In this document: one piece after another, positions 1,517 through 18,352 of the stretch
Layout of the letters: each line of letters begins with the position of its first letter
Position numbering within the stretch: the first letter of the stretch is position 1
Assembly (NCBI GenBank): GCA_037139435.1
Contig: JBAXGK010000001.1
Coordinates: 1-29,291, forward strand
DNA: 29,291 bases
Source of the DNA: Candidatus Omnitrophota bacterium
GTDB taxonomy: Bacteria > Omnitrophota > Omnitrophia > Omnitrophales > Aquincolibacteriaceae
Direction: 5' to 3'
Position numbers and translations under genes: made by a program
Notes under the pieces: generated by a model
The model's input: the letters and a program-made list of their open reading frames with translations, nothing else
What the model was told of the DNA's origin: nothing
Databases searched by the model: none

Positions 1517-3484
1517 ATGACTCTAAAAATAATTGCGATTATGAAGCAGGTGCCGCTCCCGACCGAGATGCGGATGGGTGCGGACGGTCTTATGGATCGC
1601 ACTAAGGCGAAATCCTCGATCAACGCGGATTGCACGTTCGGTTTGGAGCAGGGCCTTGAGATCAAAAAGCATGTACCGGACGCGGAGCTGATCGTGGTTT
1701 CGATGGGGCCTCCGAGTTTCGAGCAATCGCTTAAAAAAGCCCTGGCGATGGGTTACGACCGTGCGGTCCTTCTCTCGGACAGAAAGCTCGGGGGGTCGGA
1801 TACTTTTGCCACCGGCTATGCGATCTCCTCGCTTCTCAAAAAACTCGGATTCTCCAAGGATAGCAAAGACCCCTTTATCATATTCTCCGGACGCCAGACG
1901 ACAGACGGAGATACAGCGCATGTCCCGTCTCAAACAGCCGAGAATCTCGGAATCCCTCAGGCGACTTTCGTGGAAAAAGTGGAGTTCAAAGGAGATCATC
2001 TGAAGGTCCGGCGTATCATTGAAGGCGGTTTCCAAGTCCTTAAAGTTCCCGTTCCATGTCTTATTTCGATCGCCCCGACTGCGACGCCGGCGCGCCGGCC
2101 GTCTCTTAAGGGCGCTATCCGCGCGAAAAATACCAAGATCGAAGTTTGGTCGCTCGATCAGACCGGTGCTGACGTCAGCGTGGTCGGGCTTACCGGATCG
2201 CCGACGCTTGTCTGCAAGGTTGTGGATATCCAAAAAGACAGGGCTCCGGTCAATATGATTTCCGGCCATGATCCCAAAGACCTTGCGAATGTTCTTGTGT
2301 CTGAGATCGAAAAGATCAAGGACTCGATCGGCGGGGGACATGGGCAACAGGCAGGAGACGAAAGTGCAAAAGGTGCAGTCGGGGAAAAGGTCGCCGCGGA
2401 CGTGGATTTTCCGAGGGTGGATTTCCGTAATGGCGCGCGCGGCATTCTAACCTGGATCGAAATGCTCGGTGAAATGCCGTCGCGCTCATCCCTTGAGATC
2501 CTGAATCCTGCCCGAAAACTTGCGGACCAGCTCGAGACCCAAGTGACCGCGATCGTGACCGGACATAACATCAAGCATGTGGCGTCTGAGATCATCGCAT
2601 ACGGTGCCAATGAGGTCGTGGTGGTGGATGATCCGCGTCTTAAAGAATACAGGATCCTGCCGGTTGCGGCGGCGATCGCGCAGTGGATCGAACATAAGCG
2701 GCCGGAGATCGCACTTTTCGGAGCGACGACCTCAGGCCGTGAACTTGCGCCGCGTCTCGCGAGCCGCGTGCGGGCCGGTGTGACCGCGGATTGTACGAGT
2801 CTTGAAGTGGGCGAATACGTGCACCGATTAAAAAAGTCCATTTTTTATCCCGTGCTTCAATCCATTCGTCCAACTTACGGCGAAAGCAAACTTGCGACGA
2901 TCATCGGCTTTTGGTGCCCTCAAATGGCGACCGCGCGTGCCGGAACTTTTAAAATATTGCCCAAAGATTCAAACCGGAAGGGGACCGTTCGTGAATTTAC
3001 GCCCACGTTCAGGGACAGTGATTTCGCCGTGGAGGTGCTTGAGGTTAAGCGCGAGGCAGGCGGCGGCGACAACCTTTTTGTCGCGGACATCATTATTTCA
3101 GGTGGTCGGCCGGCCGGCGACCATGACGATTTCAAACTTATCCAGGAGCTCGTGAAGGCCCTGCAAGATCAAGGGATTAACGCCGATTGGGGCGCAAGCC
3201 GTCACGCGGTGGACAATGGTTATGCCCCCTACGCGCGGCAGGTCGGACAGACCGGGAAGACGGTTCGCCCGAAGCTCTATGTCGCCGTCGCGATCTCAGG
3301 GGCAATCCAGCATCTTGCGGGGATGAAAGAGTCCGGCAAGATCATCGCTATCAACCAGGACCCGCAGGCTGCGATCTTTCGCCATGCGGACTTTGGCATT
3401 GTTCGTGATTATCGGGAAGTACTCCCCGAGCTTATCGCCAAGGTGAAGGCCGGCTTTACCTTCGGGCTTGCGCCGAGTAAATAG
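1517..3484 (+). CDS. etfBA: Fused electron transfer flavoprotein beta-alpha (EtfB-EtfA), 655 aa
   Basis: N-half has EtfB motifs (MKQVP, GGSDTFAT, GRQTTDGDTAHV); Gly/Ala-rich linker; C-half has EtfA motifs (GVTADCT, GASRHAVDNG, RQVGQTGKTVRP, AISGAIQHLAGM, AINQDPQAAIF). No internal stop. Confidence 0.92.
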   Translation: MTLKIIAIMKQVPLPTEMRMGADGLMDRTKAKSSINADCTFGLEQGLEIKKHVPDAELIVVSMGPPSFEQSLKKALAMGYDRAVLLSDRKLGGSDTFATGYAISSLLKKLGFSKDSKDPFIIFSGRQTTDGDTAHVPSQTAENLGIPQATFVEKVEFKGDHLKVRRIIEGGFQVLKVPVPCLISIAPTATPARRPSLKGAIRAKNTKIEVWSLDQTGADVSVVGLTGSPTLVCKVVDIQKDRAPVNMISGHDPKDLANVLVSEIEKIKDSIGGGHGQQAGDESAKGAVGEKVAADVDFPRVDFRNGARGILTWIEMLGEMPSRSSLEILNPARKLADQLETQVTAIVTGHNIKHVASEIIAYGANEVVVVDDPRLKEYRILPVAAAIAQWIEHKRPEIALFGATTSGRELAPRLASRVRAGVTADCTSLEVGEYVHRLKKSIFYPVLQSIRPTYGESKLATIIGFWCPQMATARAGTFKILPKDSNRKGTVREFTPTFRDSDFAVEVLEVKREAGGGDNLFVADIIISGGRPAGDHDDFKLIQELVKALQDQGINADWGASRHAVDNGYAPYARQVGQTGKTVRPKLYVAVAISGAIQHLAGMKESGKIIAINQDPQAAIFRHADFGIVRDYREVLPELIAKVKAGFTFGLAPSK

Positions 3485-3534
3485 CTTTTTTTGACACCCG
3501 TTGACAAGCGGGGCAAAGGCGAAAAGAGTGTCCC

Positions 3535-3563
3535 TTGACGGGGGACATACTTCCAATTAAAAT
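3535..3563 (+). promoter_or_regulatory. Sigma70-type promoter candidate
   Basis: TTGACG (3535-3540), 17-nt spacer, TAAAAT (3558-3563), upstream of the CDS at 3704. Confidence 0.65.
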
Positions 3564-3629
3564 TCTCAGGGAATGGTCGATAATCTACCCTGGCTTTGGA
3601 TTTCTTTTTCTTGAGGGTAGCCAGGGTTG

Positions 3630-3666
3630 CCCAATTTCATCTTCGATGAAATTTAAAGGTATTGGG
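3630..3666. repeat. 42-bp-period repeat family, single B unit (CCCAAT-N25-ATTGGG)
   Basis: cccaat-ttcatcttcgatgaaatttaaaggt-attggg; internal 9-bp hairpin aatttcatc/gatgaaatt; homologous to 5670-5706 and 14203-14239. Confidence 0.85.
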
Positions 3667-3703
3667 ACTAGGGCGTCATAAAATTAACAAAAAGGGGGAC
3701 ATT

Positions 3704-4081
3704 ATGTTCAAGAAGATCATCAGCGTGTTGGTTATTGCGGTCCTGTTTACGGCCGCGAGCGGTATCGCGTATGCCGAGGAGAATAACTCGGATAAGAGCC
3801 TGACCCGTGGCGCAGCGTCCTTGGTGCTGCCGGGCTGGGGGCAGTATCTGAACAATGAAATGGACACCAAGAGCGGCAAGTTCAAGACGGGAGCCATGAT
3901 CGTGCTCGAAATCGGCGGCATCGTGACCACGATCCTGCTCGGGACCCTCGTCGGCTATCCTGTGATCTGGGTGGGTATCGGGATCCTTATATTCAACCAT
4001 ATCTGGAGCGCTTCAGATGCTTATCTGAAAGTTCCGGTGGGCCCTGAAGTAGCCATGAAGGGCGAGAAGCTCGATCGTTAA
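3704..4081 (+). CDS. Exported/membrane hypothetical protein with SLVLPGWGQY motif (DUF5683/TM2-like)
   Basis: ATG 3704 follows a GGGGG RBS; signal peptide MFKKIISVLV...AYA; two further hydrophobic segments. Confidence 0.75.
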   Translation: MFKKIISVLVIAVLFTAASGIAYAEENNSDKSLTRGAASLVLPGWGQYLNNEMDTKSGKFKTGAMIVLEIGGIVTTILLGTLVGYPVIWVGIGILIFNHIWSASDAYLKVPVGPEVAMKGEKLDR

Positions 4082-5872: not shown

Positions 5873-6352
5873 ATGAATTCTAAGCGGGCCGTTGCACTTT
5901 TCTTGTTATTGTTTTTGCTGCTGGGGCCGGGGTGCTATGCCGAAGATCCCCAGGCAACTCTTGGGCCATCGGCTGTTTCAACGCCGGCTGCGGGGCAGTG
6001 GTCCGAGGGCTGGTATCAGGGCGCTTCCGGGTACGAAAAAGCGATCGAAGAATACAAGCGGACCAATAAACCAATGGTCGTCTATATGACCGTCACATGG
6101 TGCCCTTATTGCCGTAAGTTTGAAAAAGAGGTGCTGTCGTCACCTCGGGTTCAAGATATGTTGAGGGACAAGATCAAGGTTACGATCAATCCGGAATCCG
6201 GAAGTCGCGAGAACGCGATCGCGTTTCAATACGGGATCCGGGGATTTCCGTCTTTTTTCCTCCACCCGCCTCAGCCTGCCAGTGCTGTGCAGCTTTACAC
6301 CGGGGTGTCCCCCGAGCAGTTCGTCGATTTCTTTAGACAAGTTCTCAAGTGA
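5873..6352 (+). CDS. Exported thioredoxin-like protein (WCPYC)
   Basis: Signal peptide; TWCPYC active site; GIRGFPSF cis-Pro loop. Confidence 0.85.
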   Translation: MNSKRAVALFLLLFLLLGPGCYAEDPQATLGPSAVSTPAAGQWSEGWYQGASGYEKAIEEYKRTNKPMVVYMTVTWCPYCRKFEKEVLSSPRVQDMLRDKIKVTINPESGSRENAIAFQYGIRGFPSFFLHPPQPASAVQLYTGVSPEQFVDFFRQVLK

Positions 6353-7206: not shown

Positions 7207-7800
7207 ATGATTTGCTGTTTGGATCTGGAAGGCGTGTTGATCCCAGAAATTTGGATCAATGTGGCGAAAAAGACCGGCATTAAAGCGCTTGAGATCACCA
7301 CGCGCGATGAGCCGGACTACGATAAGCTTATGCGCTATCGGCTTGCGATCTTGAAACGTGAACGGATCAAACTTTGCGACATCCAAGCCGTGATTAAGCG
7401 CATGAACCCGCTTCCGGGGGCCAAGGCATTCCTGAAGAAACTCCAGGAACGGTACCAAGTCATCATTCTCTCCGATACTTATTACGAATTTGCCGGGCCG
7501 ATGATGAAAAAGCTTGGGAACCCCACGCTTTTCTGTAATTGTCTCTCCGAAGACAAAAAAGGTTTTATCGGGAATTACCATCTGCGGCAAAAGAACGGCA
7601 AGAAAGAGGCCGTGCGAGCGATCAAGGGGCTAGGCTTCAACGTCGTCGCCGCGGGGGATTCCTATAACGACATCGCAATGCTCAAGACCGCCGACCGCGG
7701 GATTTTGTTCCGTCCGCCCGCAAAGATCGTCCGCCAATTTCCTCGCTTTAAAGTCACCCGCACCTACGCCCAACTCCTCAAGGCCTTTAGCAAAGACTGA
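7207..7800 (+). CDS. thrH: Phosphoserine phosphatase/homoserine phosphotransferase (HAD family)
   Basis: CLDLEGVLIPEIW, TTRDEPDYDKLM, ILSDTYYEF, AGDSYNDIAML; GAAGGAG RBS. Confidence 0.93.
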   Translation: MICCLDLEGVLIPEIWINVAKKTGIKALEITTRDEPDYDKLMRYRLAILKRERIKLCDIQAVIKRMNPLPGAKAFLKKLQERYQVIILSDTYYEFAGPMMKKLGNPTLFCNCLSEDKKGFIGNYHLRQKNGKKEAVRAIKGLGFNVVAAGDSYNDIAMLKTADRGILFRPPAKIVRQFPRFKVTRTYAQLLKAFSKD

Positions 7801-8097
7801 CCTGTGGGCGCTTTTCTTGGATTTGTTTAGAGTTTTGCCATCCGACCATTGTTTTGCTCATCTTAAGAATCCGAACAAAGATTTGTTACCCGTGCGCCAT
7901 GCTTTTGGTTTATATGGCGGCGGAGAAATCCCGTATTCCATAAATCAATTAACAAGAACGGGGCTCTATACAGCCACGAATACCCCGAGTTTGTGCCGAC
8001 GGTAACCATTAAATGGGATGAATTGGCGGTCATTTAGAAAAGCCTTTTTGAGTCGATAAAGACAGTGGTATTGTTTGGTGTCTATGAGGAGGGGGAA

Positions 8098-8739
8098 ATG
8101 GATTCTGTGCTAACGAATTGCGTAACGCTTATCGTTATAGTAGGTTTCGTATTGGGAATTGTTTTTCTTGTATTTCTGCGACCTGCTCAAGAAAAAATCA
8201 AGCGTTTGGCTGTCTCGCTAGGAGCTTCTAGCGTTCCTTCTTTCTTTCGTCTCCCCGGAATCAAAGGTGACTATGAGGGGGCTGCTTTTGAAGTTGCTTT
8301 CCGTGCCACAAAATCGCCGGGGATTGTTGCTCTTCGCATTACTCTTTTTCACGCTTTTATGGCAGAAGTAGACATTTTTTCCAGCGTAAGCGGCCCCATG
8401 GACAAATTTTTAAATAAAAACCCACTTCTCAAGAAAATGATGCCGTATTTTGCTGGACTTGAGCATCCAATCTATACGGATGACACAGTTGCCGCAGAAA
8501 ACTTCCTACAATCTGAACGAATAAAAAAGACGATAGATAAGCTATTTGCGATAGGGTTTTCATTGATTTCAGTTCGTAAGAATAAAATCTTTATTAATTC
8601 GGACTATTTCCTGAAGGGACTCCATCTCAGCGCCGCAGACCGGCAAACAATTTATGCAGCTTGGTTCCGTGATGACGCTTACGATCCAGAGGATATCAGA
8701 ACGGTTTTGAAAAACTTAAGTCTCATTGCGAAGGGGTAA
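8098..8739 (+). CDS. Hypothetical protein with N-terminal transmembrane anchor (AT-richer islet)
   Basis: ATG 8098 after GAGGGGG RBS; 213-aa ORF; one strong N-terminal TM helix; no family recognised. Confidence 0.65.
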   Translation: MDSVLTNCVTLIVIVGFVLGIVFLVFLRPAQEKIKRLAVSLGASSVPSFFRLPGIKGDYEGAAFEVAFRATKSPGIVALRITLFHAFMAEVDIFSSVSGPMDKFLNKNPLLKKMMPYFAGLEHPIYTDDTVAAENFLQSERIKKTIDKLFAIGFSLISVRKNKIFINSDYFLKGLHLSAADRQTIYAAWFRDDAYDPEDIRTVLKNLSLIAKG

Positions 8740-8816
8740 CACTGCTGTCAAAGCCACAATTCCCTACGCTAGAATCACAGGACTGCACCGCTGATTTTGA
8801 AGCCCATCTAGCTAGC

Positions 8817-9032
8817 CTATCCATACCACTGCCGGTCCAAACTCCGGTATTGGATCGCCTCGGCCCCAACTTTTCCATTCTTTTCCAAAATGGTAGTTGG
8901 GACGGCCCCAATCTCCACGGCGTTTCGATTGATTGGTATTGGGACCGCGATATGCTCGCTTTGAATTTGCTCGCAGCCCGCTAAGCCCGCGATAGTGCGG
9001 CCAATTTTTGGGATCTTGTAATAGGCCTTGCG
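8817..9032 (-). pseudogene. comM: 3'-terminal fragment of comM/yifB (Mg-chelatase-like ATPase), split by an 84-bp in-frame insertion
   Basis: Translates RKAYYKIPKIGRTIAGLAGCEQIQSEHIA [28-aa insert] EAIQYRSLDRQWYG*, matching the ComM/YifB C-terminal consensus I recall (R-A-Y-x-R-I-L-K-V-A-R-T-I-A-D-L...E-H-I-A-E-A-I-Q-Y-R). Confidence 0.85.
8865..8948. repeat. 42-bp-period repeat family, two tandem units (C plus A) inserted in the comM fragment
   Basis: CCCAAC 8865, GTTGGG 8896, CCCAAT 8907, ATTGGG 8938; 5-bp linkers TCGGC/ACGGC/ACCGC; total length 84 = 2 x 42. Confidence 0.9.
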
Positions 9033-9073
9033 AAGCAGTAAAAAAGGTGACGGTCCTCTTTTAGTCAACACAC

Positions 9074-9115
9074 CTACCACGGCCCATACAAGCTTTTATG
9101 TTGAATCGCCTCCGC
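9074..9115 (-). pseudogene. Second, more degenerate comM 3' tail
   Basis: Minus strand reads AEAIQHKSLYGPW*, aligning with AEAIQYRSLDRQW of the copy at 8817-8864. Confidence 0.65.
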
Positions 9116-9167
9116 AGCTGTAGGCGTTAAGCTGGAAATTCAAAGCGGTTGCGTTATACTACGAGCC

Positions 9168-10826
9168 ATGTTGAATCAACTTCACATCAGAAATTTCGCG
9201 CTGATCGAGGACCTGACGCTTGAATTCTCCGGGCAAATGAACGTGCTTACGGGGGAAACGGGTGCTGGCAAATCCATTTTAATCGATGCGATCCGTTTCG
9301 TCTTGGGCGAGCGGCTGGACGGGCTCAGGACGGAGCCGAGCGAGAAACCCTGCCAGGTGGAAGCTGCGTTCGAGCTCCGGGAAGACTTCCTCAAGAAACA
9401 GCCTGCGCTCGAGCCTTACCTTAACGAAGATGGCCTGGTCATCCTGCGCCGGGAATTCTCCCAGGGAAAGACCCGCGCGTGGATCAATAACCGCCTCGTG
9501 CCACTCTCCATTCTGAAAGAAGCCGGCGCTTCTCTGATCGATATCCATGGACAGCATGACCACCAGCAGCTGCTGGATAGCGCCGTGCATCTTGATATTC
9601 TCGACCGTTTTGCCAAGATTGAACCTCTGAAGGAAGACTACCGTATCCTCTATGAGCAGTATGCCCGTTTAAAGAAGGAGCAGGGAGAGCTCGCGGAGCT
9701 TGAGGACCACAAGGAACGGGAGCTCGACGTTTTGAAATACCAAGTAGACGAAATTGAACGCGCGGAGATCAAGGATCTGAATGAAGAAGACCTGGAATTG
9801 GAGCGCATGCGGCTCGCGAACGCAGAGAAACTTGCCGAGATCGTAACGCATGCACTTGCGGTTCTGGATGAAAACGATACAAACGCGGACGGTTTTTTAT
9901 CCGAAGCCGTGCGCGATCTTAGAAGTCTCGTCAAATTCGATAGCTCGGTCGAAAAGATCAAAACCGATTGCGAGAACGTGCAGTACTCACTCCAGGAGGC
10001 CGTGAGCGCTCTTCGGGATTACCGGGAGAAACTCACGTTTGATCCGGACCGTCTCAAGGAGTTGGACAGTCAGGCCAATCTTCTCGACCATCTCAAACGG
10101 AAATATGGCGGGACGCATGCCAAGGTGCTCGAATTCTACCGGGAGGCCAAAGCGAAATACGACAAACTGATCGACATGGACATGACGAAGAAGGACCTGC
10201 GGAGGGAGATGGAGGGGCTGGAACCGAAGTTGCAGGAGGCCGCGCTTAAATTCTCCGAGAAACGGAAAAAGGCGGGGGGGCTCCTTGAAAAGTCGATCGA
10301 GTCTGAATTGAAGGACCTTCAGATTGCACACGCGGAGTTCGAGGTGCGGATCGAAAGGACGGGTTTTTCTGCGGAAGGGATGGACCACGTGGAATTTCTA
10401 GCGCGCATGAATCCTGGCCAGCCGATGCTTGCGATCGCGAAGATCATTTCCGGCGGCGAAGCGTCCCGCGTGATGCTCGCCATGAAAAAGGCGCTTATGC
10501 AGGTCGATCTCGTGCCCGTCCTTATCTTTGATGAGATCGATACCAATATCGGCGGACGCTTGGGCAACGTTACCGGCCAAAAACTCAAAAGCATCTCTGG
10601 CGAGCGGCAGGTGCTGCTCGTGACCCATTTGCCGCAGATCGCGTCTTTCGCGGACCGGCATCTTAAAGTGACCAAGTCCGTCGAAAAGGGCCGGACGATG
10701 GTCCGGTATCAGGTACTCGAAGGCGAGGCCCAAGTGCGGGAGCTCGCACAGATGATGAGCGGTCAGCAGGAAAGCGAGATCTCACGGCGCCACGCTGAGG
10801 AAATGCTCGACCGCGCGAATTCCTGA
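9168..10826 (+). CDS. recN: DNA repair protein RecN
   Basis: LTGETGAGKSILIDA Walker A, IHGQHDHQQL, ISGGEASRVMLAMK, LIFDEIDTNIGG, VTHLPQIA. Confidence 0.97.
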   Translation: MLNQLHIRNFALIEDLTLEFSGQMNVLTGETGAGKSILIDAIRFVLGERLDGLRTEPSEKPCQVEAAFELREDFLKKQPALEPYLNEDGLVILRREFSQGKTRAWINNRLVPLSILKEAGASLIDIHGQHDHQQLLDSAVHLDILDRFAKIEPLKEDYRILYEQYARLKKEQGELAELEDHKERELDVLKYQVDEIERAEIKDLNEEDLELERMRLANAEKLAEIVTHALAVLDENDTNADGFLSEAVRDLRSLVKFDSSVEKIKTDCENVQYSLQEAVSALRDYREKLTFDPDRLKELDSQANLLDHLKRKYGGTHAKVLEFYREAKAKYDKLIDMDMTKKDLRREMEGLEPKLQEAALKFSEKRKKAGGLLEKSIESELKDLQIAHAEFEVRIERTGFSAEGMDHVEFLARMNPGQPMLAIAKIISGGEASRVMLAMKKALMQVDLVPVLIFDEIDTNIGGRLGNVTGQKLKSISGERQVLLVTHLPQIASFADRHLKVTKSVEKGRTMVRYQVLEGEAQVRELAQMMSGQQESEISRRHAEEMLDRANS

Positions 10827-10840
10827 CGAGGATATCTTTT

Positions 10841-11138
10841 ATGGAAAAATTAACCAGCGGTCCAGGTTGGTCTCTCAGTTCCGATGAGCCGAGTCCTGCG
10901 ATCAAAAAGAAAATCCAAACACCCCCAAGCCCGTGATCCATTTGGAAAAAAGGACCTGGAAATACGTGAAGGTCGTCTCCGGGCTCCACATCTATGGCTC
11001 AGAGAGATTGAAGGGGTGGCCCGTGAATGGAAGACGCTTTGTGGGGCCGGCGGCACGGTCAAGAACGGGGCCATTGAGATCCAGGGCGATAAGGTTCCGT
11101 TGATCCGACAATGGTTTTTAAAGAGAGCCTCCCGGTGA
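10841..11138 (+). pseudogene. yciH: SUI1/YciH-like translation initiation factor with two apparent -1 frameshifts (pseudogene or assembly error)
   Basis: ATG 10841 with GAGGA RBS. Three frames in succession give MEKLTSGPGWSLSSDEPSPAIKK / ENPNTPKPVIHLEKRTWKYVKVVSGLHIYGSERLK / GVAREWKTLCGAGGTVKNGAIEIQGD. Span is 298 nt; adding 2 nt restores a 99-aa ORF. Confidence 0.7.
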
Positions 11139-11141
11139 TTT

Positions 11142-11531
11142 TTACAGATTTGCGCGGATCTTATCAGCGGCCTGGGTGAGCTCTTCAGGAGTTGCGGCTT
11201 TGGCGCGGGCGAAGCTGAGGTCGCCGACACTATTGATCGGGATAAGATGGATGTGGGCGTGCGGGACTTCAATCCCGGCGACCATGATACCGACTTTCTT
11301 GCAGGGGAAGGCCTCCCCGATCGCTTTGGCGACCTTCTTGGCGAATACCATCAGCCCTTTTAACAGCTCATCCTCCACATCAAAAATATAATCAACCTCT
11401 TGCTTGGGGATGACGAGCGTATGGCCGGGATTCACCGGACGGATATCGAGGAATGCGAGATATCGGTTGTCTTCGAGGATCTTGTGGGCGGGGATCTCTC
11501 CCGCGAGGATCTTGGTGAAAATAGTAGGCAT
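11142..11531 (-). CDS. HIT family nucleotide-binding protein
   Basis: Start MPTIFTKILAGEIP at 11531; DIRPVNPGHTLVIPK; HIT motif VPHAHIHLIP. The ORF-track extension to 11723 is judged spurious. Confidence 0.92.
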   Translation of the reverse strand: MPTIFTKILAGEIPAHKILEDNRYLAFLDIRPVNPGHTLVIPKQEVDYIFDVEDELLKGLMVFAKKVAKAIGEAFPCKKVGIMVAGIEVPHAHIHLIPINSVGDLSFARAKAATPEELTQAADKIRANL

Positions 11532-11537
11532 GGGCTC

Positions 11538-11650
11538 CCCCGTTAGAGATAGGAGGCGCTCCGAAAGCGCTCCCGTGAGTTTCTGGAATTGACTGACAGG
11601 AAACGAACTGTTGAAATCTGGGGAAATTATAGGACCAATCTCTAACGGGG
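11538..11650 (-). repeat. MITE-like element with perfect 13-bp inverted ends (second copy)
   Basis: CCCCGTTAGAGAT 11538-11550 and ATCTCTAACGGGG 11638-11650; subterminal hairpin homologous to that of 5740-5867. Confidence 0.7.
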
Positions 11651-11806
11651 TAAACCTCCTTTTTGAGAGCGATATAGTTTTTTTAATGAAATGCGGTACA
11701 ATATTCCAAGACGTGCTTCTCATGCTGCGGTTTCCATAGGTAGTATGGGCCCAAGCCCTTATTTTTTCATGAAAAGTAACTTCGATAAAAAAACAGGGGG
11801 TTTAAG

Positions 11807-18234: not shown

Positions 18235-18259
18235 TGCGGTAGTGTAGCACTTGAAATAA

Positions 18260-18337
18260 AAGTTTCAAAGTGTCAGAGTATCAAAGTGTCAAAGCGTTGA
18301 TACTCTGATACACTGACACCCTGACACTCCAATACGC
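18260..18337. repeat. Inverted octamer array in the folB/rlmD divergent promoter region
   Basis: AAGTTTCA AAGTGTCA GAGTATCA AAGTGTCA (18260-18291), then TGATACTC TGATACAC TGACACCC TGACACTC CAATACGC (18298-18337). Confidence 0.85.
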
Positions 18338-18352
18338 TCTATATTTAATCCT

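Follow-up and report, generated by a model that had tools for sequence, protein, structure and literature searches.

Remnants of the comM 3' end in an Omnitrophota genome, one of them interrupted by an 81-nt two-hairpin mobile element

The stretch of DNA analyzed here (29,291 nt, contig JBAXGK010000001.1 of assembly GCA_037139435.1, “Candidatus Omnitrophota bacterium”; hereafter the window) raises a question: how did the end of the gene comM come to be present twice, side by side and immediately ahead of recN, with one of the two ends split by 84 nt of a dispersed repeat? An earlier note, made from the sequence alone, had read the region as the scar of repeated site-specific events at one comM junction. 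We consider it likely that the comM relics lie in a 3.3-kb insertion, that the first of them was hit by an 81-nt element and that the CGG triplet used there has been hit repeatedly. The genome holding the window (G000) is a 2.44-Mb metagenome-assembled genome (MAG) of 455 contigs and 93% completeness. Other G numbers denote Omnitrophota relatives, and comparisons within the genus cover G000 and 19 same-genus genomes (20 in total). C numbers denote contigs, and L numbers denote extracted loci (L001, G000:C4; L003, G000:C54; L019, G009:C17; L020, G007; L027, G017; L179, G031:C29).

Read on the minus strand, positions 9045 to 8817 encode the final ∼46 codons of ComM, interrupted after ...SEHIA by exactly 84 nt (...KIPKIGRTIAGLAGCEQIQSEHIA, 84 nt, EAIQYRSLDRQWYG, stop codon). 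As it stands, the open reading frame (ORF) scores 23.8 bits against PF13335 (Mg_chelatase_C; cut-off, 26 bits; model length, 94 positions), over positions 61 to 88. With the 84 nt removed, the score rises to 38.4 bits (E 1.9e-9) and the match runs unbroken from position 61 to 94, which upholds the earlier assignment to the ComM/YifB C-terminus. The relic retains just the last third of the domain, and its 5' part has 70 to 79% DNA identity to same-genus comM tails, with many third-position differences. A second tail was also correctly noticed: 13 codons on the minus strand from 9115 to 9074 (AEAIQHKSLYGPW, stop codon) begin at GCGG/AGGCG (the slash marks the break), the same point as the split in the first tail and no more than 1 to 3 nt from the insertion triplet. 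Tail 2 alone is a weak match (tblastn E 0.41, 7/8 residues), but its position supports its identity. Because the AAA+ Mg_chelatase core (PF01078) and the Lon-like N-domain are not in the window and the gap between tail 2 and the recN start is only 52 nt, positions 8817 to 9115 hold relics rather than a comM gene, namely, two nonfunctional remnants of the comM 3' end. The reading frame is conserved because 84 is 28 × 3, an arithmetic that carries no meaning in a dead fragment. Taken alone, the relic is an ordinary scar; the observation is real but mostly ordinary.

An 87-codon open frame (8817 to 9080) in a MAG of 455 contigs might in principle be an assembly chimera or a real, expressed small protein of 87 amino acids. 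Both are very improbable. Contigs of three independent lake studies (7600 to 9130, 7653 to 9225 and 8836 to 9251) cross the filled site and the joints with 0 to 1 differences, and the DNA of the window is therefore real. The frame is open because the element has stop-free frames on this strand, as in many spurious ORFs, and the ORF belongs to no family except for the partial PF13335 match. An empty-site allele was not found in the Logan contigs of three DNA runs, in which rare variants drop out, so that absence is not implied; a recN contig and matches to the repeat were all that came from the single RNA run, which was thus uninformative. Runs from the lake contain this population at ∼5 to 10×, as short-read contigs only.

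What, then, is the insert? It had been described as exactly two copies of one 42-bp unit, and this description has to be replaced: the 84 nt consist of two unlike 39-nt hairpin modules joined by a 3-nt linker, together with one duplicated triplet. Each module is palindromic (YCC...GGR). In module A, the loop is T rich and the 8-bp stem is highly variable; in module B, the arms are invariant (CCCAAT/ATTGGG) and the inner stem varies. Positions 4 to 8 of the A stem pair with positions 36 to 32 in 28 to 29 of 29 copies, with two to four base-pair types per position, and the inner stem of B covaries likewise. The copy in the window scores 71.2 bits in nhmmer and, whichever strand is taken, folds into a pair of hairpins (z −2.2 and −2.9). 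A search of the whole window against Rfam (E ≤ 1) gave no match at the repeat or the relics. The palindrome at 9042 to 9062, which the earlier note had likened to the repeat core, does not share these features, as its fold is indistinguishable from that of shuffled sequence (z −0.06) and the repeat model does not match it.

The boundaries of the element follow from the comparison of filled and empty sites, pairs of which were seen in comM tails and in uvrA. In the sense of the tail, the empty site of intact comM genes reads catatcgCGGaggcg, whereas in the filled relics of G007 and G017 the sequence is catatcgCGG, 81 nt, CGGaggcg, and in that of the window it is CGG, 81 nt, CCG. The element is therefore 81 nt long and is accompanied by a 3-bp target duplication, a net gain of 84 nt or 28 codons. 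The full C-terminal domain of comM in 17 same-genus genomes covers model positions 2 to 94 with no insert, so the 28-amino-acid segment is not native to intact comM genes of this genus. The insert in tail 1 is thus an 81-nt element with a 3-bp CGG duplication that arrived later in an existing tail. Across the genome, 24 of 45 full copies have the same triplet on both sides (shuffle mean, 7.1; maximum in 5,000 trials, 16). The target duplication at the uvrA site is not clean, with GGCNAG occurring three times, which suggests an old insertion. The modules combine as A-B, A-A-B, A-B-B and B alone, and in G000 the 3' arm of a further A module stands ahead of many copies, so that modules stack with a strict period of 42 nt. 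At the comM junction of G000:C4 (L001, 1380 to 1510), two A-type modules are nested in the inner loop of a B module.

The attribution of the insert to a dispersed family was borne out: G000 holds 59 copies by a strict pattern and 135 by an nhmmer profile, mostly intergenic, in both orientations relative to genes, with some inside unrelated genes. A strict B-module pattern, run on 41 genomes with the reversed pattern as a control (0 matches in the 41), found 10 to 80 copies in 18 of the 19 other same-genus genomes and virtually none in 21 genomes that represent further genera of the family and order. When 185,579 species were scanned, each through one genome, the matches came solely from “Candidatus Omnitrophota” MAGs and unnamed bins. 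The element is restricted to one Omnitrophota genus. Five copies lie in frame within intact ORFs of G000 (Table 1). The 1,025-amino-acid uvrA ORF stays in frame, and its ∼30 extra residues are found in G000, G009 and G018 and absent in 13 relatives.

These counts bear on the nature of the repeat. The earlier note had offered two possibilities, a recombination-site remnant or an ultra-small nonautonomous element that targets the comM junction. The repeat is an ultra-small nonautonomous mobile element, and the ∼135 dispersed copies contradict the notion of a remnant. Its supposed dedication to comM could be argued from a single trinucleotide that is occupied in at least five relics, from the breakage at that same point of tail 2, of a 5'-half relic on C4 and perhaps of another on C15, and from a density of elements in relics that we estimate to be ∼8-fold that in average intergenic DNA. 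Against this, ∼135 copies per genome occupy unrelated sites, including uvrA and genes for an aminoacyl-tRNA synthetase (ValRS by motifs), Kdo transferase and a histidine kinase; most tail relics and all intact comM genes are without the element; and no recombinase is linked to it. A recombination-site remnant or a comM-dedicated unit is therefore largely refuted by the genome-wide distribution, and we regard either as improbable. Of the targeting claim there remains the identity of the CGG used in at least five relics. Element copies do not lie beside any tyrosine recombinase and, being dispersed, form no integron cassette array; likewise, no tyrosine or serine recombinase was found in the window, as had been stated. 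As a separate observation, short tyrosine recombinase genes (frames of ∼210 to 250 amino acids) occur on tiny contigs or at contig ends in G000 (C225, C255 and C169), G007 (C38, C258, C260 and C266), G018 (C130) and G010 (C77), which suggests a multicopy element that breaks assemblies.

Tail 1 ends in a proper stop codon and has a convergent neighbor, as the end of a gene would, and the relics could in principle be what remains of an ancestral comM locus whose gene body was deleted. The position of the actual gene makes such decay in place scarcely credible. G000 has one comM body, its sole comM-typical PF01078 match, on C54 (L003, 2 to 2565), where the 5' neighbor of comM, a DUF212-like gene, also lies; the usual 3' neighbors, a response-regulator pair, are at the end of C19, which stops 600 nt past the response-regulator gene. 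The phosphatase-like gene (7207 to 7800) and the convergent HIT gene (11142 to 11723) that enclose the relics are adjacent, without any gene between them, in the four closest relatives (G009, G010, G031 and G012), and the distance of 52 nt from tail 2 to recN again speaks against a former gene. The scar is therefore not at the comM locus itself but in a 3.3-kb insertion holding an island-end piece and a translocated recN-yciH block.

The comM gene on C54 is itself disrupted. Its ORF loses sense after AAMNPCPCG and runs into a convergent gene for a large serine recombinase (Resolvase, Recombinase and zinc-ribbon domains), which reads into the junction, and comM of G031:C29 (L179, 12783 to 14561) is cut at the same place, in the PCPCG motif. 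In G008:C45 and G011:C17, the comM C-terminal domain is found in open frames of only ∼160 to 180 amino acids, more exactly 163 to 172, which is consistent with the same mid-gene split.

Where do displaced comM tails come from? Eleven genomes of the genus contain additional partial PF13335 matches, covering model positions ∼60 to 94 only. In G006, G007 and G017, where comM is intact, and in G031, where it is split by the recombinase, such relics follow comM downstream on its strand at a distance of 1 to 5 kb, and in places a series of two or three stands ahead of the conserved response-regulator genes. Direct repeats of the last ∼95 to 120 nt of comM bracket the cargo between gene and relics, examples of which are an acyl-CoA ligase/acyltransferase, a VWA protein, membrane proteins of small size and, by reading of the sequence, an aldo-keto-reductase-like gene. 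Ahead of many displaced tails stands a common non-comM sequence, the X arm, which is conserved across species and metagenomes and changes mostly at third positions of an antisense frame (...KYPNKDLLYTTYEYPEFVP.VTIKWDEL, stop codon). In relatives, an X-arm pseudo-ORF (...NPNKDLL...YPEFVPTVTIKWDEL, stop codon) stands directly ahead of tail relics. The 34-amino-acid X-arm peptide ends only frames of 33 to 141 amino acids (41 genomes; 1.84 billion proteins), the N-terminal parts of which are mostly antisense comM tails, and the frame matched no Pfam family; the X arm may be a small gene or a conserved site arm.

These arrays support the view, already expressed in the earlier note, that the comM 3' end is a recurrent site of integration and tail duplication in this lineage. 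Their anatomy is that of site-specific integration at a gene 3' end with tandem accretion, although, with no integrase on the relic-bearing contigs, we infer an integrase-mediated accretion, and its enzyme, from that anatomy alone. Small islands would accumulate at the comM 3' end within the genus, every arrival duplicating the last ∼31 to 40 codons, and the outcome would be comM-island-tail(-island-tail) arrays with an X arm ahead of the displaced tail; pieces of such ends could also come to lie away from comM.

Several further observations concern the surroundings of tail relics. ORF6N-domain genes lie beside them in several species (L021, 5022 to 5534, by Pfam; L001, 1596 to 2195, L022, 4886 to 5434, and L027, ∼3378 to 3960, by a similar N-terminus), and one such ORF6N/relic locus, next to htpX, is syntenic in four species. 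A YhcG nuclease gene adjoins a tail relic in L024, and a 101-amino-acid Y1_Tnp (IS200-like) fragment lies directly 3' of the tail relic of G009:C17 (L019, 6008 to 6313). In the window (7893 to 7968) and in G000:C118 (∼1440 to 1520), the X arm is interrupted by a short conserved segment (...acccgtgc...caattaa..gaacgggg), and the same acccgtgc...gaacgggg segment is found just 3' of tail relics in G009 (L019, ∼5900 to 5960) and G007 (L020, ∼5990 to 6050); this segment could represent a further mobile or site element of small size. On C15 (position 15435) a possible further relic, with an element closely like that of the window, gave an alignment score equal to the best of 300 shuffles and is counted as doubtful. 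A match of the tail peptide on C40 is a false positive, being leucyl-tRNA synthetase by its conserved motifs.

Given many tails, how often was the CGG hit? In at least five relics, which come from three species, this CGG is filled by a copy of the element, always in one orientation: that of the window, one on G000:C4, two on G007:C2 and one on G017:C169. The relic on C199 has no CGG at the junction because GCT replaces GCG in the junction codon, and there the element occupies the following CGG of that tail. Four genomes have an orthologous relic linked to htpX, which is filled, by different subtypes, in G000 and G007 and is empty in G016 and G014, although by HtpX the nearest genome to G000 is G016 (80% identity, versus 69% for G007). 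Targeting by hairpins was considered and rejected, as the folds of 24 reconstructed empty sites (mean, −8.4 kcal/mol) were no more stable than those of 600 intergenic C-N-R control sites (mean, −10.1 kcal/mol).

The occupancy of the same CGG probably reflects independent hits. The recurrence would then be repeated insertion at a favored site in neutral, multicopy DNA, with composites of tail and element also being copied within genomes. Copying might, however, account for the whole pattern, if a single ancestral insertion in an island-borne tail had spread as a composite by within-genome copying and interspecies transfer, with no hot spot. In keeping with this, the junction elements fall into subfamilies that follow the tails: the copies in the window, on C4 and on C15 have nearly the same B module, and the loci L020-5031 (G007) and L027-3207 (G017) have an unusual B module in common across species. 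A Logan contig from the same population carries another locus of X arm, tail and element, and target sites generally have no structural preference. The occupancy data point the other way. The CGG is shared by at least two subtypes of the element; a single gain in the htpX-linked relic would require two precise losses to restore the intact GCGGAG of G016 and G014; siblings with the same X arm differ in occupancy (L020-5877 versus L026-5501); and the C199 relic uses another CGG. Filled tails are 63 to 79% identical to one another and up to 84% identical to empty tails, and since they are no nearer each other than they are to empty ones, repeated insertion is favored. We therefore consider a single insertion unlikely, although it is the alternative to which we give the most weight.

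Several points weigh against the combined reading of an island-end insertion, a later element and repeated CGG hits. First, tail 2 is broken at the same point with no element present. Second, the 3' part of the G000 comM is not in the assembly. Third, the reconstructed target sites share no sequence beyond C-N-R, and the recurrent use of CGG has no mechanistic explanation. Fourth, some junction copies clearly share ancestry (there is a close likeness among those in the window, on C4 and on C15, as there is between L020-5031 and L027-3207). Fifth, no tyrosine integrase (PF00589) was found on any relic-bearing contig of the 20 genomes or inside the islands inspected. Sixth, G000 has no PF01797 (Y1_Tnp) gene that might serve the element, in a search for a parent limited to Y1_Tnp, Phage_integrase and Resolvase. 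Finally, the flanking triplet correlates with the internal linker (CTA/TTG, CTG/CTG, CAG/CAG and CCG/CGG), a correlation that a simple target duplication does not predict.

The last of these points would be explained, together with the 42-nt stacking of modules, if modules were inserted not by a cut-and-paste transposase but by recombination at a 3-nt core, like folded single-stranded attC sites. We give this only a slim chance. Were it true, GCGG/AGGCG would be a crossover site common to the hairpin modules and to the integrase-less islands behind comM, and such a shared crossover would account for the half-tails broken exactly there (tail 2 and the C4 relic).

The features of the 3.3-kb insertion are listed in Table 1. 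The 224-amino-acid product of orf8065 is encoded in none of the 19 other genus genomes, and the gene has a GC content of 42%, compared to 52 to 53% in its flanks; we read it as island cargo. Because the ABC-F ATPase gene that recN follows in relatives lies elsewhere in G000 (C137, with other genes after it), recN has moved. An open yciH-like copy is present on C244 (100 amino acids aligned, 86% identity), and tail 2 lies <30 nt from the joint of the recN block. X arm, strain-specific cargo gene and two tails would represent one island-end piece, inserted with the recN-yciH block between two normally adjacent housekeeping genes. The recN start is ∼70 nt nearer to a conserved TATACT box than in relatives. 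Elsewhere in the window, positions 18257 to 18339 form a long, near-perfect hairpin that gives 31.7 bits with an Rfam plant microRNA model (cut-off, 100) and certainly does not belong to that family.

Table 1. Features of the comM relic region and in-frame copies of the element in G000 (positions refer to the window unless a contig is named)
Feature	Position	Strand	Remarks
Whole 3.3-kb insertion versus four closest relatives	7801..11141		Defined by synteny
Degenerate inverted X arm	7862..8037	+	∼76-nt internal insertion common to C118
orf8065, 224-aa membrane-anchored protein	8065..8739	+	No Pfam family
comM tail relic 1, 3' part	8817..8860	-	EAIQYRSLDRQWYG and stop codon; E 5e-7 (tblastn)
Left flanking triplet CGG	8861..8863	+	Imperfect copy of target duplication; CCG expected
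Two-hairpin mobile element, 81 nt	8864..8944	+ (A-to-B)	Module A, 8864-8902; linker CGG, 8903-8905; module B, 8906-8944
Right flanking triplet CCG	8945..8947	+	CGG in tail sense; target triplet is last two bases of Ala GCG and first of Glu codon
comM tail relic 1, 5' part	8948..9045	-	PF13335 positions ∼55/61-88; ...AYYKIPKIGRTIAGLAGCEQIQSEHIA
Spacer between relics, 28 nt	9046..9073		Holds the “imperfect palindrome,” not significant; no repeat-model match
comM tail relic 2, 3' half only	9074..9115	-	AEAIQHKSLYGPW and stop codon; begins at GCGG/AGGCG, abuts recN block
recN, translocated	9168..10826	+	Follows ABC-F ATPase gene in G009, G010
yciH/SUI1-like gene, frameshifted, travelled with recN	10841..11138	+	
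In-frame copy, class-I aminoacyl-tRNA synthetase (ValRS by motifs)	G000 C48 5870-5957		Intact ORF
In-frame copy, UvrA	G000 C112 4628-4711		Intact ORF
In-frame copy, Kdo transferase	G000 C10 18149-18231		Intact ORF
In-frame copy, UvrD-like protein	G000 C134 804-886		Intact ORF
In-frame copy, histidine kinase	G000 C83 3222-3310		Intact ORF

The analysis has the following significance. (i) Clean pairs of filled and empty sites fix the boundaries of the element, at 81 nt and a duplicated target of 3 bp. (ii) In one Omnitrophota genus, the comM 3' end gathers small, tail-bracketed cargo islands without a local integrase, and since comM is also split mid-gene by serine-recombinase elements in at least G000 and G031, it is a double hot spot in an uncultured phylum. 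(iii) A repeatedly hit trinucleotide provides a handle on the target choice and the moving enzyme of a hairpin element, the mechanism of which matters for the evolution of these small genomes because essential proteins gain loops of 28 residues from it. What merits a further look is the recurrent target, together with the island arrays that lie behind comM without an integrase.

Element and scar belong to known kinds, the former being similar to transposable elements of the miniature inverted-repeat type (MITEs) and Rickettsia palindromic elements (RPEs) and the latter being the scar of an integration hot spot. RPEs are multicopy, short, palindromic mobile elements of ∼100 to 150 nt that are found in frame within housekeeping genes (PMC10969869). 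The Omnitrophota element appears analogous in having a length that is a multiple of three and open frames, properties that allow in-frame survival inside genes, and in its in-frame copies in the uvrA, class-I aminoacyl-tRNA synthetase and Kdo transferase genes; the uvrA case has the RPE-type trait of an in-frame copy in an intact ORF that is absent from orthologues. It differs in being 84 nt long, with two separable 39-nt hairpin modules and covarying stems, and in its host, a free-living or epibiotic candidate phylum, and in the window the host “gene” is dead and the in-frame state is meaningless. Bacterial MITEs (Correia, ERIC, Nezha and others) are small, noncoding and dispersed, with hairpin-forming ends and short target-site duplications (PMC10969869). 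The Omnitrophota element is likewise short and noncoding, with many copies, a 3-bp target duplication and nested copies; unlike MITEs, it is modular, with a 42-nt period and a correlation of triplet and linker, and the Y1_Tnp, Phage_integrase and Resolvase searches returned no parent.

REP, BIME and REPIN sequences consist of 35- to 40-nt hairpin units in mosaic arrays, with compensatory stem changes, and are mobilized by RAYT (Y1) transposases. Mosaic arrays of hairpin units and compensatory stem changes are also features of the Omnitrophota element, but G000 has no Y1_Tnp gene and the copies are flanked by 3-bp direct repeats, whereas, to our knowledge, REP/RAYT transposition makes no target duplication. 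The likeness to integron attC sites goes no further than the conserved ends and variable stems of the hairpins, with no array beside an integrase.

The scar, in turn, resembles genomic islands at gene or tRNA 3' ends, which displace a duplicated tail and may accrete in tandem, as do the tycheposon islands of Prochlorococcus. In Omnitrophota, too, tail repeats bracket cargo beside an intact comM (G006, G007 and G017) or a split one (G031), with tandem islands and a conserved arm. In contrast to those systems, the islands and relics have no integrase in or near them in the 20 genomes, relics are also scattered, and the copy in the window is not beside comM. The gene comM is a known target of AbaR-type transposons, and elements with large serine recombinases split competence genes and excise to restore them, as in comK (Listeria) and spsM (Bacillus). 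An element with a large serine recombinase cuts comM at the same point in G000 (C54) and G031; the C54 cut is mid-gene, has no long duplication and is unrelated to the tail relics of the window.

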